IMG/VR virus record: IMGVR_UViG_3300027007_000012
Coordinates: 1-64,000 of that record
From: a virus
Taxonomy: Duplodnaviria; Caudoviricetes
Length of the DNA: 64,000 bases
Strand: one strand, 5' to 3'
Shown one piece after another: positions 28,801 to 58,491 of the stretch. Under the pieces are notes generated by a model. The model did no database searches and was not told the origin of the DNA. It was given only the letters and a program-made list of their open reading frames with translations. Position 1 is the first letter of the stretch. Each line of letters begins with the position of its first letter. Both the position numbers and the translations under genes were made by a program.

Positions 28801-29163
28801 GACATCCGGCGGTTGTTCCGTGAAGTCGGCCAACACCTCCGTGACCACTGGCCCGACGACAAGACCCAGGAGGAGCTCCAGGAGACGGTCGAAGCAGTTG
28901 AGGCTCCCTGGGGTCGCCGCTACGAACGTGAACTCCGGGAGATCTACGAAGACGAGTCGCTGGGCCCGATCGAGAAGTCCCGCGAGCTCGTCGAGAAAGT
29001 CGATGATCTGGGCCTCCAACCGTTCGAGGCACCCGACCCGCTTCCACCGATCGAGGAGGACGAAGTGAAGTTGGTCTGCTGGATGATCGTCGCTCCTGGC
29101 GAAGGCGCGAGTGAGCGTAATGATCGCCCGGGACTGATGTCCCAAGTGACGTTCGATACGTAA
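25795..29163 (+). CDS. PLD-nuclease domain fused to an SNF2-family helicase
   Basis: HGKAYLFSD ... GSSNFT (HKD-type), ADEVGLGKT, DEAH, LTATPVNN, QRNGRIDR; 8-nt overlap with the MTase gene. Confidence 0.9.
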   Translation: MTEQPQVVDNRDGNTLAAAINAYLGDLDERLADDPDLDIATGYFNPRGYFSVAEGLEHVDQVRLLIGAQPDQEGKERWRHPEEPQGEAYERKRIEEALQTLDFNLKRDRDLLGFSRNVDQGLQELVDFLRSDRVEVRRHEDSFVHGKAYLFSDSQGVLAGSSNFTGAGLNSNLELNLGAYDPHVTGEVNNWFEDLWEASDPFDLASLYEERFEPYDPHLIYLRVLYERYGDELEEEREDDGGAINLTNFQQDSVRRANRFLDKHNGVIIADEVGLGKTYIGGKLLEQYVQENRQRALVVAPAYLRDGMWEQKPAEWGVQFETVSYAQLRNDSQLGGDANNLSLPVDEYQLVVIDEAHAFRNPGTQQSHALRTLLRGDPPKDVVMLTATPVNNSLWDLYYLLNYFVRNDAAFANEGIRSLRDQFKEAQAEDPSDLSPDMLFDVLDQTTVRRTRRFIKNHYENATMPDGDDGEVRINFPDPKPQRVDYTFTDTFGDDYFLDVAEGLAAGDRDEAELTLARYRPSYYLEGEEDASELSLVGLLRTGLLKRFESSSYAFKNTLDGMISQNRVALQLIEEGYFPETNAIEEWVETDSDEGMEELLDEASDGNISLAAADADPAELRADLEYDIEILERWRDGAQDVSRDDDEKLHALRDTLEDIVETAREDAEARQISDEEIEAAFRQNRKVLLFSYYEDTVDWIYEYLESVVSEDEDLSCYEGRIAAVSGDGSKYGVTREEAVHGFAPNSGDAPPDATDEFDILITTDVLGQGVNLQEARNVINYDLPWNPMRVVQRNGRIDRVNSPHSEIYPFSFFPEDRLDDLLELEHRVREKLTQAARSIGVSGGVIPDMETLNQNFAEKVEEIDSIQQEESDFYEQGGAEAAAYSGEEYRQELREGLEDREDQITSLPWAAGSGFRGDDPGYFFCARVGDEVFMRFVPHEMEGDDELVQDTLTCLKRIECSRDTERALPDGMRDQIYGAWETAQEDIYSQWQEQTDPLNVQPDIRRLFREVGQHLRDHWPDDKTQEELQETVEAVEAPWGRRYERELREIYEDESLGPIEKSRELVEKVDDLGLQPFEAPDPLPPIEEDEVKLVCWMIVAPGEGASERNDRPGLMSQVTFDT

Positions 29164-29206
29164 CACCTTCAATTAGCGAGTACAGTTGTTTTAGACGAGC
29201 GTCATA

Positions 29207-32580: not shown

Positions 32581-32624
32581 ACCCGGCATGGTGCGTCGTG
32601 GGGGTTCGAGTCCCCCACCGGGCA
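32581..32624 (+). ncRNA. Miniature tRNA-like element A
   Basis: CCCG/CGGG stem, GCA-TGG-TGC mini arm, GTGGGGG-TTCGAGT-CCCCCAC T-arm; no anticodon arm. Confidence 0.6.
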
Positions 32625-34240: not shown

Positions 34241-34501
34241 ATGGTGAACTGGGGCGGGCGGTACCCGCCAGGAGCAGCGAACGACCCGGCGGCACCGTAC
34301 AACGAGCCGGAGATGCCCGAGCCCGGGACCGTGATTACGCACGACGTCTCGGAGGCGTACTGCGCGGACTGTGACGAGACGGTCGGGCCAAACAGCCCGG
34401 ACGTCGTCGCGGACATCCTGCTGGACGAGCACCACGGACACCAGGTGGAGGTCGAGTCGTGGACGGAGGAGGAAGTCTGGGGAGGCGACGATGCCCGGTA
34501 G
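34241..34501 (+). CDS. Zinc-binding hypothetical protein
   Basis: CADC ... EHHGH; GGAGG RBS. Confidence 0.6.
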   Translation: MVNWGGRYPPGAANDPAAPYNEPEMPEPGTVITHDVSEAYCADCDETVGPNSPDVVADILLDEHHGHQVEVESWTEEEVWGGDDAR

Positions 34502-38250: not shown

Positions 38251-38297
38251 GGCGTCGGTTTTGGCGTGATGCTGCGGATCGAATCCGCTCGACGTCC
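38251..38297 (+). ncRNA. Miniature tRNA-like element B
   Basis: GGCGTCG/CGACGTC stem, TGG-containing linker, GCGG-ATCGAAT-CCGC T-arm. Confidence 0.5.
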
Positions 38298-40287: not shown

Positions 40288-40337
40288 GCATCGCTGCTGG
40301 TGGCATTCCGAGCTCGGTTCGATTCCGAGGCGATGTG
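40288..40337 (+). ncRNA. Miniature tRNA-like element C
   Basis: GCATCGC/GCGATGT 7-bp stem, TGC-TGGTG-GCA mini arm, CTCGG-TTCGATT-CCGAG T-arm. Confidence 0.65.
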
Positions 40338-49879: not shown

Positions 49880-50381
49880 CCTGGGAGAGGAGCGACGATG
49901 TCGACGGTGCGGCTTCACGTGGGTCGACGAGTACGGGAAGTACCGCTCGTGCCCGCAGTGTTACGGAGAGAAAGATGAGTGACAACGAAGCGATCGCGGT
50001 AGAAACGGACGGTGAGACGTACGCCGACATTCGCGTCGACGGCGCAGTGGCCGCGTCGGTCGACGTCGTCGACGAAGATCAGGTGAAAGCAAAGCTCTAC
50101 GAGTTGGTGAACCCCGGAGACAGAGACGCGATCGATGTCTGGTTCATCGACCGGCTGACGGAGGAGAGTGACGAAGATGAGTGACGACATCCACCAGCAA
50201 CTACGGGAGAAGTACAGTGACCTGATAGAGCGACACAGGGAACTGAAAGCATCTGCGAGGGAGGCGGATATAACGGAGGACCCGCTCCACTCACCTGGGG
50301 AGATACGGGCCGAAGCAGACGGCGTCATCCTGGGAGTGCGGGCTATCGAGGACGTGCTGAACGCCATCGAGAGGGACGGAG

Positions 50382-52087: not shown

Positions 52088-52102
52088 CCCCCACCCCCGA
52101 GA

Positions 52103-52171
52103 GGCCGAATACAGGTCTCCGGGAGCTGCGCCCTTCTGGGATTCGGGTCGGTTCGATTCCGACCAGGGCCA
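52103..52171 (+). ncRNA. tRNA-like element D (imperfect acceptor stem)
   Basis: Perfect GTCGG-TTCGATT-CCGAC T-arm followed by CAGGGCCA; the 5' GGCC pairs only partly. Confidence 0.45.
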
Positions 52172-53181: not shown

Positions 53182-53194
53182 CACATGCACCCAG

Positions 53195-53500
53195 ATGCCA
53201 CCAGAAGCGGGAGGAATCGTGAGCAGTAAACGCGCCGGTCTGTCTCCGAAACAGCTCGGGGCACTCACCAGAGGGGGACTCGTCGAGGTCGACGACGGGA
53301 CGCGTCGCTCGGTCGAGCTCTATTGTGAACAGGATGATGCCGAGGTGTGGTCTCGGATTGCCACCACAGACGGTGGCGAGGAGTTGACGGTCCTTTCGTT
53401 CCCGGAGGATGTCTGGGAAGACGTTCTCGACGTACTGGGCGTCGAGGATGGCCGAGACAAGATCAAGGTCGGGTCGATGGTGTGGGTACAGCGCGGCTGA
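53195..53500 (+). CDS. Hypothetical protein
   Basis: Likely start at the motif ATG (MPPEAGG...); a reverse motif copy lies just after the stop. Confidence 0.55.
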   Translation: MPPEAGGIVSSKRAGLSPKQLGALTRGGLVEVDDGTRRSVELYCEQDDAEVWSRIATTDGGEELTVLSFPEDVWEDVLDVLGVEDGRDKIKVGSMVWVQRG

Positions 53501-53809
53501 CGTTTCTGGTGGCATCCAGGTGATGGGTCGATATTAAAAATTCTTATAGTTGCCAACTTCTCGAAATAAGAGATCTGTATAGAAGAGGCGTTTAAACCTG
53601 TCTGAAGGGCTTATCTGTGAGGTAATCCGAAAGTTATAATGAGTTGGGGGACCGAGTGTATGTTACCAGATATGGGTACACAGATGGGGGCGGTCGACAC
53701 GCTGTTGATCACCCCGAACCCCCACGAGACACGAACGCACTACGAGCTCCTCGAGATCGGGCGCGAGGAGTTCCATGGAACTGTTACAGTCGTTGGACTG
53801 GCGTCGTAG

Positions 53810-54205
53810 CCCGGCGAGACGATCTTCGAGCCATGATCCCCACCCCCGAGACATCGAAACCACGTGCCCGAGGCCCGGTAGCGGGTCGTGGGCTGGCAAA
53901 AGTGATCGATCATGGTGGATATGGCGGACAAGCGTCCGTAGTACCATACTATGTTGGGCGCAGTTCTAAATACTCTGCACCCATATACGATTATACGGGC
54001 AAGTGCTCTGGTCCATTCACAGACCAGCGTATGCGCTCGTTAAACTGGGTAGCTGCAAGCGACCCCTTTCGGAACGCGGGGCGACTTACCTGGGGAGGTG
54101 TCGTTCCCGTTCGCTTGCAGTTTTCGTACAGTAACGCCCGTGAGACTGGTGTCTCACGTCCTGTTCGATTCGGGACACGGGCATCACCCGACTGGGTGAG
54201 GTTCT
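53810..54205 (+). ncRNA. Candidate large structured ncRNA ending in miniature tRNA-like element E (54136-54183)
   Basis: Stems GCTGCAAGCGA/TCGCTTGCAGT enclosing two hairpins, CTGGTC/GACCAG, GCCCGT/ACGGGC with GAGAC-TGGT-GTCTC and GTCCTG-TTCGATT-CGGGAC. Confidence 0.55.
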
Positions 54206-54211
54206 GAAACG

Positions 54212-54622
54212 ATGGAGGAAATACCACCAGAAGCAGCTGAGCCTGCGCACGAGCAGGAGTATAACGTCCGGATGCCCCAGGAGATGGTCGTCTACTACGA
54301 CACGGTTCTCGACCAGACGGTCACGGTCCGCGATGTCGACAGCGGGAACGACGGGTTTGTCACCTACCACACGGAGGGTGGGCCGGAGAACATGGTAAGC
54401 GAGCCCATGAATCGCTTCCTGGCGTGGCTGGCCGCTGGTCGCTTCGTCAAGCTGGGAGATCGGATGGACGCCCACGGCATCGATGCTTACGACGAAGACA
54501 TTGCGAACGTCTTCGCCGAGGCGTACGGCTACGACCCGCGCGAGTTCCGCCCGTTGGAGCTCGCCCGGTTCCTCCTGGCCGAGCGGCTCGACGAGACACT
54601 GGTCATGGAGGACGATGGGTAG
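54212..54622 (+). CDS. Hypothetical protein
   Basis: 136-aa acidic ORF; coupled to a small ORF at 54615-54797. Confidence 0.6.
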   Translation: MEEIPPEAAEPAHEQEYNVRMPQEMVVYYDTVLDQTVTVRDVDSGNDGFVTYHTEGGPENMVSEPMNRFLAWLAAGRFVKLGDRMDAHGIDAYDEDIANVFAEAYGYDPREFRPLELARFLLAERLDETLVMEDDG

Positions 54623-55640: not shown

Positions 55641-55731
55641 AAAAAACCCCACTCGATGCCACCAGAGGCGTATGTACGTACATACGCGCCCATACGTACG
55701 CCCCTCCTGGCACCCCTGAAGCCCTCCCCAG

Positions 55732-58491
55732 ATGACAACAGCGAACCTCCTGAACCAGAAGGTCGGTAAATTCGGCCAGGTCCCCGGCGCCGCCTCTCGT
55801 GCTCGCATGTCCGAGCTCGTCGAGGGGAAAGGCGCACTCGATCTCCGCGACTACCAGCAGCATTTCGAAAAAGCGTTCGACGATAAAGTCACTGCGCAGC
55901 TCAAGTTCGAGAACTGGTGTTGCCGCGTCAAAGACAAGCTGATAGAGGAGTCGGGCATCACTCTCCGCCCCTACCAGAAAGAGTTCTCGGACCGTATCAT
56001 CAAGTCGGTCGTCAGGAACGACGGACAGACGTTCTTCGCCGAGTGGGCCCGACAGTGTCTCGACAAGGACACAGTCGTCCTCGACTACGACGGTTCAGCC
56101 ACCCGCATCAAGGACCACCCGAGAGCGTGGAAGACCGGCGTGAAAGATGCGTACCGTCTCAAGACGCAAGGTGGGTGCGAGATCGTCGCCACCGATAATC
56201 ACCCGTTCTGGACGCCTGACCGAGACTTCGTCGACTTGGGAGACCTCTCGCCTGGTGACCTGGTTGGAGTCACTGATGGTATCGACCGCCAGTGGAACGA
56301 CGAACAGGTGTTCGAAACCACGTACGAGAAGTTCGTCAACATCCACCGGACGGACACAGTCGATCTCCGAGAGCCTGTAACACACGACTTCATGGTGTTC
56401 CTCGGACTGATGACCGCTGACGGCACCGGGTACGAACCCGACTCGTCACAGTCGGTGAAGTTCACGAACACGAACCGTGACTACTGCGAATGGGTTGCTG
56501 ATTTCGCCTACCGACGATGGGGTGTCGACCCACAGTGGTACGAGAAGGGCAACGGCTGGGACGTCGTTCTGTCGACGCGAGACAACGGTGCGACGAACCC
56601 CGTGAACGAAGCGTTCCGCACTGTCGAGCTCGACGATGGCTTCCCTACGGCGGTGTTCGACACTAACCCCGAGGCTGTTGCGTCGTTCCTCAACGGTCTG
56701 TGGGCGGGCGATGGCTACCTCTCTGTCATCGATGAGTCGCGTGACCGCACGGGAGGTCGTATCGATCTCGGCGTTGCTGGTGGCAACCGAGAGGTGTTCG
56801 TTCGGTATGTCCAGCAGCTGCTCCAGAAGGTCGGCATCGAGGCCCGCGTCAAGCGCGAGGTGATGGAGAAGACGACTGATGGAGAGCAGTTCTACCGCAT
56901 CCTGGTTAACGGGACACACGGGGCGAAACGGTTCTTCGACCTGATGGACCCGGTAGTGGGGAAAGAAGACGCGTATGCTCGCGTGAGGGCGGTCGTCGAC
57001 GCGCGTGACGGACGTGGGCGTCGTGTCTACGGCGATCACACGGAGCCGACTGGTGAACACATCGTCTACCGGAAGGTCACGTCCATCGAGTACGTCGGGG
57101 AACGAGAGGTCTGGGACGTTCGCTACCCAGGGAAGGACTGGTTCATCGGTCAGGGATTCAAGACGCACAACAGCGGGAAGACGGAGACGCTGGCCTCGAC
57201 AGCCTACGTCATCAGTGTTCTGTTCGCCCCGATCCGCATCGGTATCTTCGGTCCAAAACAGCGACAGGCGCAGATCATGTGGGACCGCGTGAAAGAGCGG
57301 TACAACCAGGATGTGCTCAGCGGACTCGGGCTGGAGATCGAGAAGTACGGGGGAAACACGTTCAAGCTGTCCTCCGGTTCTGTAGTCCAGGCGATCACGG
57401 CGGGCTCGGGGAACATTGAGGGGGAGACCTTCGACCTGATCCTCATCGACGAGACGCAGAAGATCAGTCGCCGGATGCTCCTCGCCGAGATCTGGCCGAT
57501 GGGCGCTGAGACCAACGCGACGAAGTGCTGCATCGGGACACCGCACTTCCAGGACTGCTGGTTCCGCGAACAGCTGGAGCGGCTGAAAGGCACGCCGTTC
57601 TGCATGATCTACGACTGGCGGACGCCAGCGAAATACTCACAGAACTACCGGAAGTCGATCGCTCGCCAGTTGGAGCAGATGAGTCCCGAGTCGGAGGAGT
57701 TCCGCACTCAGTACGAGCTCGAGTGGATTCTGGAAGCCGGGATGTTCATCACGATCGAAGACTGGCGTCGGATGAACCCCGCGCCGCTGCTGGCGCCGGT
57801 CGTCACGAAGGAGGACCTCCGGGACGACGATGTAGACTCGAAGTGGCAAATCCGAGCGGGGCTGGACCTCGCGAAGGAGCACGACTCGACCGTCCTCACA
57901 GTCACTGGCAAATACTTCGGGTCGTGGGACCCTTACTGGGATTACTTCTCGAACGAGACGATCGTCCTCCTCGACGTGGTCGAACTGGAGGGGCTCGAAT
58001 ACCCCGACCAGATCGACATCATCAAAGAGGAACTCGACCGCTGGCACGCAGACGTCGTTGGGGTGGACTCGACAGGTGTGGGTGACCCGGTGACGGACAT
58101 CCTGAAGCGAGAGTTGAACCAGTACGTCGAGGGCATCAAGTTCTCGCAGGCGAGCAAGCACGACCTGTACAAGCACGTCGAGCGGAAGGTGAAAGTCGAG
58201 GAGGAATGGGACTACTGCAACTTCGTCATCCCGAAACAGGTCCGGTCGTATCCCCACCTGGAGGTTTCGATGCGGAAGATGGAAGATCAGTGGCTGGACC
58301 TCACGAAGGAGTACAAAGGGTCGCGGATGCACGTCGAGGGGCCGGACAGTGGGCACGACGACTTCCCGGACTCGGCGGCGCTCGCCATGTGGTGCCAGGA
58401 CGCCGACTACAACATCGACAAGAAGCACATGACATCCCCGACCCCGGTCCTGGGGACGATGGATGGGATCGGCGCGACGATCGGGTACTGA
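55732..58491 (+). CDS. terL: Terminase large subunit with intein
   Basis: LRPYQ, split Walker A ARQ|SGKT, ILIDETQ, nuclease GLDLAKEHD, DSTGVGD, HDDFPDSAALA. Confidence 0.92.
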   Translation: MTTANLLNQKVGKFGQVPGAASRARMSELVEGKGALDLRDYQQHFEKAFDDKVTAQLKFENWCCRVKDKLIEESGITLRPYQKEFSDRIIKSVVRNDGQTFFAEWARQCLDKDTVVLDYDGSATRIKDHPRAWKTGVKDAYRLKTQGGCEIVATDNHPFWTPDRDFVDLGDLSPGDLVGVTDGIDRQWNDEQVFETTYEKFVNIHRTDTVDLREPVTHDFMVFLGLMTADGTGYEPDSSQSVKFTNTNRDYCEWVADFAYRRWGVDPQWYEKGNGWDVVLSTRDNGATNPVNEAFRTVELDDGFPTAVFDTNPEAVASFLNGLWAGDGYLSVIDESRDRTGGRIDLGVAGGNREVFVRYVQQLLQKVGIEARVKREVMEKTTDGEQFYRILVNGTHGAKRFFDLMDPVVGKEDAYARVRAVVDARDGRGRRVYGDHTEPTGEHIVYRKVTSIEYVGEREVWDVRYPGKDWFIGQGFKTHNSGKTETLASTAYVISVLFAPIRIGIFGPKQRQAQIMWDRVKERYNQDVLSGLGLEIEKYGGNTFKLSSGSVVQAITAGSGNIEGETFDLILIDETQKISRRMLLAEIWPMGAETNATKCCIGTPHFQDCWFREQLERLKGTPFCMIYDWRTPAKYSQNYRKSIARQLEQMSPESEEFRTQYELEWILEAGMFITIEDWRRMNPAPLLAPVVTKEDLRDDDVDSKWQIRAGLDLAKEHDSTVLTVTGKYFGSWDPYWDYFSNETIVLLDVVELEGLEYPDQIDIIKEELDRWHADVVGVDSTGVGDPVTDILKRELNQYVEGIKFSQASKHDLYKHVERKVKVEEEWDYCNFVIPKQVRSYPHLEVSMRKMEDQWLDLTKEYKGSRMHVEGPDSGHDDFPDSAALAMWCQDADYNIDKKHMTSPTPVLGTMDGIGATIGY
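56056..57171 (+). mobile_element. LAGLIDADG intein (372 aa) in the TerL P-loop
   Basis: Starts C(LDKDT), ends THN followed by S; LAGLIDADG blocks FLGLMTADG and FLNGLWAGDG. Confidence 0.92.

Follow-up and report, generated by a model that had tools for sequence, protein, structure and literature searches.

The C4 RNAs of phages P1 and P7 and the CI RNA of phage P4 are matured from operon leaders by RNase P and regulate the same operon. By analogy, the locus described here would also supply a viral leader RNA cut by a host tRNA-processing enzyme, whereas the phage RNAs belong to bacterial systems, are far shorter and act on known antisense targets. In mitochondria, tRNA punctuation and the t-elements of plant mitochondria provide tRNA-shaped signals that set mRNA ends within polycistronic RNA. 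The signal reported here differs from these in being viral and archaeal, in not being a functional tRNA and in having an extra domain upstream. To our knowledge, very few structured non-coding RNAs from archaeal viruses have been described, and experiments on t-elements in messenger leaders are not known to us. In Holzle's 2012 work, most of the additional tRNA-like elements of Haloferax were reportedly left uncleaved in vitro.

The closest described system is the t-element in the 5S leader of Haloferax volcanii. According to PMC4326828 (citing Holzle 2008, 2012), Haloferax t-elements are cleaved in vivo by RNase P and tRNase Z. In the 5S-leader element, an acceptor-like stem stacks on a T arm of 5 bp whose loop has 7 nt, a short substitute containing GG takes the place of the D arm, an anticodon arm and an encoded CCA are absent, and the next functional RNA follows immediately; all of these traits recur at the present locus. 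Unlike the Haloferax element, the present one lies in an apparent viral mRNA leader, between a domain of ~140 nt and a hairpin over the ribosome-binding site, a closed hairpin of 4 bp with the loop UGGU forms its D-like part, and its cleavage is predicted. A second likeness is found in the mascRNA-type signals of MALAT1 and NEAT1 (PMC12941219), where a long structured RNA also ends just 5' of a tRNA-like element, and where, as would be the case here, an RNase P cut sets the 3' end close to a stable structure. MALAT1 and NEAT1 are lncRNAs of the eukaryotic nucleus that end in a triple helix (PMC12941219), whereas at the present locus a coding mRNA continues downstream, and no sequence or structural homology links the two.

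The window, that is the whole stretch of 64,000 nt that was analysed, covers the opening 64 kb of an IMG/VR virus record of 88.7 kb. Its proteins are acidic, its promoter motifs are of the BRE/TATA type, and nine tRNA genes lie within it. A T4-type large terminase (TerL) containing an intein is encoded at 55732-58491. The intein (residues ~113-480) carries a LAGLIDADG homing-endonuclease domain and is found in the L008 homologue too, and not in that of L006. In the cultured-phage collection, the best matches of TerL were bacterial phages at ~30% identity, no cultured virus being close, and blastn/tblastn against this collection gave no match for the RNA region or for the 136-aa protein encoded just downstream of it. 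Among the relatives is a circular episome of 148.9 kb from Halobaculum (Halorarum) halophilum (plasmid NZ_CP058532.1), so that the host range is haloarchaeal. In the RefSeq annotation of this episome, the gap that holds the RNA locus (98183-98645, strain Gai3-2) is left without a feature. The RNA region is, by a modest degree of preference, read as the structured non-coding leader of an operon in which the 136-aa gene comes first and which runs into the terminase genes, the virus being an uncultured tailed virus of haloarchaea.

Table 1. Features of the RNA locus in window coordinates
Feature	Position	Strand	Remarks
BRE/TATA CGAAAG-TTATAA, predicted micro-ORF promoter	53628-53639	+	Conserved in window, L003 and L006
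Micro-ORF, 49 aa (56 aa from ATG 53639), ...GTVTVVGLAS*	53660-53809	+	Conserved
Lineage-variable spacer with C-rich motif CCCCACCCCCGAGA (53838-53851) and local hairpins	53810-53965	+	
TATA-like motif CTAAATAC, candidate core-RNA promoter	53966-53973	+	
P2, long hairpin with conserved ACA in loop	53995-54040	+	13 pairs, 6 changed on both sides; recovered by RNAalifold
Junction block AACUGGGUAGCUG	54043-54055	+	Same in every family member; P3 begins with its last five bases
Three-way-junction domain P3/P4/P5	54051-54122	+	Pair counts on R1 alignment
P3, GCUGCAAGCGA (54052-54062) with UCGCUUGCAGU (54111-54121), plus A54051-U54122	54051-54062/54111-54122	+	12 pairs, 5 compensatory, 97% paired
P4, weak hairpin inside P3	54065-54072	+	
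P5, long hairpin inside P3	54077-54109	+	13 pairs, 7 compensatory
P5 cap ACCU-GGGG-AGGU	54088-54099	+	Invariant in five lineages; most widely conserved motif
U-tract right after P3, possible partial terminator	54121-54124	+	U4-U5 in 4 of 5 lineages
t-element (mini-tRNA), 47 nt plus discriminator A54183	54136-54183	+	16 pairs, 6 compensatory
Hairpin UCACCC-GACU-GGGUGA (54184-54199), then GG	54184-54201	+	Stem invariant, loop varies
136-aa gene with SH3-like barrel N-domain	54212-54622	+	Homologues follow the RNA in all RNA-bearing lineages

A conserved core of ~210 nt (53995-54204) is common to five sequence lineages (Table 1). The stems that an earlier note, made from the letters of this region, had listed are all present where it placed them, its 11-bp closing stem reaching 12 bp with A54051-U54122, and the junction with two hairpins, the mini-tRNA and the TCACC/GGTGA hairpin before ATG 54212 can likewise be read from the sequence. 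In the nucleotide alignment, the invariant blocks AACTGGGTAGCTG, ACCTGGGGAGGT, GTTCGATTC and TCACCC..GGGTGAGG are separated by stretches that differ among lineages yet are still complementary. The P5 cap contains an SD-like GGAGG(U) and reads GCCU-GGGG-AGGC in the distant relative L031 and GUCU-GGGG-AGGC in L027. The U-tract is missing in L007 and after the hairpins of L027 and L031. In the terminal hairpin, an anti-SD-like UCACC is paired with an SD-like GGUGA 10-12 nt upstream of ATG 54212, burying part of the ribosome-binding site; it is without covariation evidence, since its stem is invariant and only its loop varies. On the plus strand, 53810-54211 folds at -173.3 kcal/mol, against -143.1 +/- 5.7 for shuffled sequences (z -5.26, 0 of 100 shuffles as good), and the minus strand of the flagged region folds with a z of -2.53.

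Two further contacts were considered for this fold. A long-range pairing of the C-rich motif (CYCR) with the UGGG of the junction was not demonstrable, as it showed one-sided compatible changes only. For a pseudoknot of the loop with sequence downstream of the t-element, no complementarity was seen at the locus. As a separate observation, the window has six copies of the string YCTGGGGAGR where 0.7 would be expected, for example at 2716-2725, 34476-34485 and 50294-50303, one of the sites lying between two tRNA genes.

The five lineages comprise two uncultured viruses (that of the window, and L002/L003), the Halobaculum halophilum episome (L006) and two metagenome groups (L007, and L008/L009/L011). 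The relatives were reached through homologues of the 136-aa protein, and each shows a micro-ORF, a gap of 300-460 nt and then the 136-aa gene. A covariance model, R1, built from three sequences only (window, L003 and L006), recovered seven of seven copies at full length with 118-237 bits, four of which had not been used in building it. Paired cells made up 93.8% of the R1 alignment compared with 82.9% in shuffles. Counted on five lineages only, in an alignment fitted to R1 and with the last hairpin and the invariant blocks outside covariation testing, 24 of the 60 pairs were changed on both sides, against 12.6 +/- 2.3 in shuffles; when partners were slid by 1-3 columns, only 3-5 double-changed pairs were left. 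RNAalifold predicted the same helices from the same alignment. Since G-U cells (29) exceed A-C cells (9), the RNA is placed on the plus strand.

Outside the family, searches returned little. Rfam 15 gave no relevant match, either for the window at gathering thresholds or for 53300-54400, L007 and L009 at permissive thresholds, and the only matches in 53300-54400 were at chance level (CRISPR-DR9 with 15 bits, threshold 45; CDKN2B-AS_2 with 13 bits). Pattern scans of IMG/VR, metagenomes and species genomes yielded nothing or only the known loci plus L011, a near-copy of L008/L009. R1, run over two partly overlapping samples of 151 Halobacteria genomes each, found a full-length match only in the Halobaculum episome. 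Two of the checks that the earlier note had proposed, an Rfam search and a collection of homologues, ended in no relevant family and in the five covarying lineages, and its reading of a viral structured non-coding RNA holds. The core is a real, conserved and covarying RNA of the plus strand, non-coding by the tests given below, linked to one gene and matching nothing in Rfam 15. Its t-element module is of a known kind; what is new is the ~140-nt upstream domain (P2-P5), which matches no known family.

The 187-aa ORF overlapping the region (53644-54207) had been called basic and atypical, and its composition bears this out. It has a pI of 10.5, with 30 K+R against 15 D+E, and its GC by codon position is 0.64/0.60/0.49, compared with ~0.65/0.35/0.8 in the real genes next to it, where GC2 is 0.33-0.37 and the pI ~4-5 (about 4.2). 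Substitutions between the window and L003 are spread over the codon positions of this frame as 44/42/42, with no codon periodicity and no third-position excess; the micro-ORF next to it shows 5/5/19. The corresponding frames of L003, L006 and L007 share the flat GC profile and are basic too (GC2 0.5-0.6, pI 9-11 in four lineages), the frame holds at least six stops in L008/L009, and between the window and L003 it shifts inside the mini-tRNA, which is conserved at the nucleotide level. No family match was found for the ORF in Pfam or PHROGs. The ORF fails every coding test run and is not a gene; coding conservation of 53644-54207 is absent, and the non-coding view of the interval stands.

The tRNA-like part consists of a 7-bp acceptor (54136-42 with 54176-82), which together with the 5-bp T stem makes 12 bp, compensatory changes being present in both stems. 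The D-like hairpin is AGAC-UGGU-GUCU, with the GG in its loop, and the T arm is UCCUG-UUCGAUU-CGGGA, with an invariant 7-nt loop closed by G54163-C54171. There is no anticodon arm, only 16-17 nt lying between acceptor and T stem, CCA is not encoded, and neither ARAGORN nor the Rfam tRNA model RF00005 called the element. In a by-eye comparison, the same layout was seen in the 5S rRNA leader of Halobaculum halophilum (L033, the genome hosting L006), as CCGAC, 11 nt, and AUCGG-AUCGUUC-CCGAU-GGUCGG, ending a few nucleotides before 5S. Judged by sequence and layout, the tRNA-like part is a haloarchaeal-type t-element in an mRNA leader rather than the 3' terminus of a free tRNA-like RNA, and the hairpin and the start codon come immediately after it. 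Of the tRNA-like 3' end first suggested for this RNA, the tRNA-like domain near the 3' end is thereby kept and the end itself given up. The likenesses to tmRNA and Y RNA proposed along with it were not borne out. ARAGORN and Rfam found no tmRNA, the acceptor is formed locally, and no conserved short ORF or start codon was seen in the RNA; neither viral genome (G000, G002) has a TROVE/Ro gene, Rfam gave no Y-RNA match, and the conserved structure is without a terminal stem joining its 5' and 3' ends.

Other tRNA-like elements occur in gene leaders of the same virus, at 52103-52171, 32581-32624, 38251-38297 and 40288-40337. These four have an acceptor and a T arm with the T-loops UUCGAGU, UUCGAUU or AUCGAAU, and after at least the one at 52103-52171 come a hairpin and an ATG, in this order. 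An R1 match at 29130-29164 of the window was weak and was set aside as not a convincing t-element. In four cellular haloarchaeal genomes, R1 also matched t-element-plus-hairpin units just before start codons (L023 1501-1565 on the minus strand, L025 1507-1581, L026 1501-1584, L024 1418-1463). The units, t-elements with or without a C/G-rich hairpin, end 12-35 nt upstream of the start codons, and the genes downstream of the L023 and L025 elements encode twin-arginine signal peptides. The cellular leaders suggest a general intercistronic device.

Upstream of the core, the AT-rich region that the earlier note took for a promoter holds the BRE/TATA motif, with AT-rich equivalents in L007 and L008, and an AT-rich block near 53541-53556, both conserved. 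Consensus and spacing predict promoter activity at 53628-53639 and a leaderless start at ATG 53660. Micro-ORF homologues of 45-49 aa occur in L031 as well as in the five lineages, and L029 has a similar ORF of 50 aa (...VVVVGLAS). A single structured unit of ~400 nt, as first put forward, is not supported. Conservation across lineages is limited to the 3' ~240 nt of this interval (53966-54204); the 5' ~150 nt are lineage-variable and, in L031 and L029, hold a 58-59-aa ORF instead. The spacer aligns poorly and is shorter in L007-L009, and the stems of 53810-53960 are lineage-specific. The 58-59-aa ORF (..WYVRAVVKKK..RFEFL.NSDG..) is itself conserved and directly follows the micro-ORF (L031 203-382, L029 2135-2311), in the place that is a non-coding spacer in the window's clade. 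The C-rich motif CCCCACCCCCGAGA is found exactly twice in the window, at 52089-52102 and 53838-53851, both copies lying between a stop codon, which they follow closely, and a tRNA-like element, and a related virus has the related motifs CCCCCACCCCCG and CCCCCACACTCG at the apparent counterparts of both places. The motif may be a 3'-end signal or a protein-binding signal.

At the 3' edge of the spacer, a motif (C/A)TA(A/T)(A/G)TA(C/T) stops 21-22 nt short of the first P2 pair in five of five lineages, while the sequence between them is variable, and the same motif stands at the same spacing ahead of the hairpin of L027. A conserved 5' hairpin with CUAAAUACU in its loop was tried and dropped, as no fold was common to all lineages (judged partly by eye); because its spacing to P2 is fixed, the motif was reread as a TATA-like box. 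It may thus be a second promoter, and the fixed distance would put the start of the core RNA near 53993-53995. In strain Gai3-2, the primary 5' end would then be expected ~22 nt past the CTAAGTAC motif.

The model of the 136-aa protein has a pLDDT of 78.7, and its best structural matches are generic Tudor/KOW/FeoA-type barrels with Z 5-6; every Atlas match was below 0.8, the fold search yielding a generic SH3-like barrel only. A type III toxin-antitoxin or defence role for the flanking small proteins drew no PADLOC, NCBIfam, Pfam or PHROG match, and no MazF/ToxN-like match was seen among the fold matches listed. A profile of the 136-aa family led to distant homologues. L031 and L027/L028, whose RNAs were assigned by weak model scores (11 and 7 bits) together with motif, order and gene context, retain only the YCU-GGGG-AGR-capped hairpin, the linker UCCGUUCCAC and the t-element, which ends 2-5 nt upstream of the ATG. 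A tRNase Z cut in these relatives would leave a near-leaderless mRNA, much as in mitochondria. L029/L030 have a gene of the 136-aa family and no RNA, so the RNA is dispensable in some relatives. Since L031 and L027/L028 keep only hairpin, linker and t-element and L029/L030 lack the RNA, the GGGG hairpin with the t-element looks like the older unit, to which P2 and the junction would have been added in the window's clade.

A mechanism is proposed in which RNase P and tRNase Z process the structured mRNA leader at its t-element. It is the reading we lean towards, with slightly better than even confidence. The design of the t-element matches the 5S-leader element, and Haloferax t-elements are cut in vivo (PMC4326828). 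Host RNase P would cut on the 5' side of the t-element at ~54135/54136, and host tRNase Z past the discriminator at ~54183/54184. Three products would result: a stable leader RNA of ~140 nt, longer if transcription begins at the micro-ORF promoter; a mini-tRNA of ~48 nt; and a downstream mRNA beginning with the hairpin that locks the ribosome-binding site. In strain Gai3-2, where the linker from P3 to the t-element is longer, the predicted leader would measure ~185 nt. The upstream domain P2-P5 may bind a protein or the ribosome, or may stabilise the new 3' end.

Alternatively, the leader may act in cis without being cut, either with P2-P5 as the binding site of a small ligand or of a protein such as the 136-aa product or the micro-protein, or with P3 and its U-tract as an attenuator, the last hairpin gating the ribosome-binding site. 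The U4-U5 after P3 in four of five lineages would fit an attenuator, the SD-like sequence lies partly within the UCACCC/GGGUGA hairpin, the link of the RNA to one gene family is tight and exclusive across differing contexts, and the GGGUAG of J2/3 could rival GGGUGA for UCACCC. This account is nevertheless unlikely: L007, L027 and L031 are without the U-tract, the t-element would be an odd component unless used by tRNA enzymes, no conserved internal loops resembling a ligand pocket were recognised, and no riboswitch family was matched in Rfam.

A trans-acting viral small RNA is quite unlikely. Here RNase P would free P2-P5, and its invariant single strands would base-pair to targets in the virus, such as the CCUCCCC at the terminase start in the case of GGGGAGG. 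Sites of CCCUCCCC, complementary to the GGGGAGG of the P5 cap, lie at 55722-55731 of the window, at ~5667-5676 of L012 and at 5032-5039 of L006, and CCCUCCCC abuts the TerL ATG in the window, L003 and L006. The two invariant blocks are also conserved far past the needs of pairing, and a freed leader would be a discrete, stable RNA of ~140 nt. Against such targeting, the site before TerL is missing in L008/L009, CCUCCCC occurs 15 times on the plus strand of the window, the GGGG hairpin is retained in L027, where ~2.9 kb of downstream sequence contains no terminase gene, and GGGGAGG is half buried in the P5 stem. It is equally improbable that P2-P5 would represent a new class of archaeal-virus regulatory RNA, freed by RNase P and acting in trans through GGGGAGG and CUGGGUAG on the terminase start or on its own UCACCC/GGGUGA lock, so as to time the packaging genes.

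A signal at the DNA level, such as a pac/cos site or a replication or regulatory region beside the terminase genes, would suit the position just upstream of the packaging module, and 53500-53640 holds several conserved DNA blocks and one copy of the dispersed GATGCCACCAG. It is very improbable in view of the compensatory changes, which preserve pairing as the sequence drifts, the strand-specific G-U excess, and the L027 element, which adjoins an integrase and has no terminase gene in the ~2.9 kb downstream. As to the repeat itself, GATGCCACCAG occurs 19 times in the window against 0.04 expected. The copy upstream of the locus promoter region lies at 53506-53516 on the minus strand, further copies are at 53194 and 55655, and the mini-tRNA at 40288-40337 carries, in its D-like part, the reverse complement of the repeat in a shortened form, CTGGTGGCAT. 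That the 187-aa ORF, or a shorter one from ATG 53833, is a true protein gene is scarcely credible: the frame is open for 100-200 codons in four lineages and the brief N-terminal stretch M(x)TPTL seems to be conserved, but the substitution pattern, composition, frame shift, stops and family searches given above speak against it, as does the recurrence of the C-rich motif at 52089, in the gap after the stop codon of an upstream ORF.

Returning to the favoured reading of a leader cut at its t-element, what sets the locus apart is the combination of a covariation-supported domain of ~140 nt, a t-element and a hairpin locking the ribosome-binding site, all before one gene family. Because one copy lies on the episome of the cultured Halobaculum halophilum Gai3-2, RNA-end mapping and mutagenesis are directly feasible. 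If true, the cleavage would be a parallel to the mitochondrial, MALAT1 and phage P1/P4 strategies. In conclusion, if the cuts occur, archaeal viruses would shape their late messages with the tRNA-maturation enzymes of the host, perhaps freeing a small RNA in doing so.
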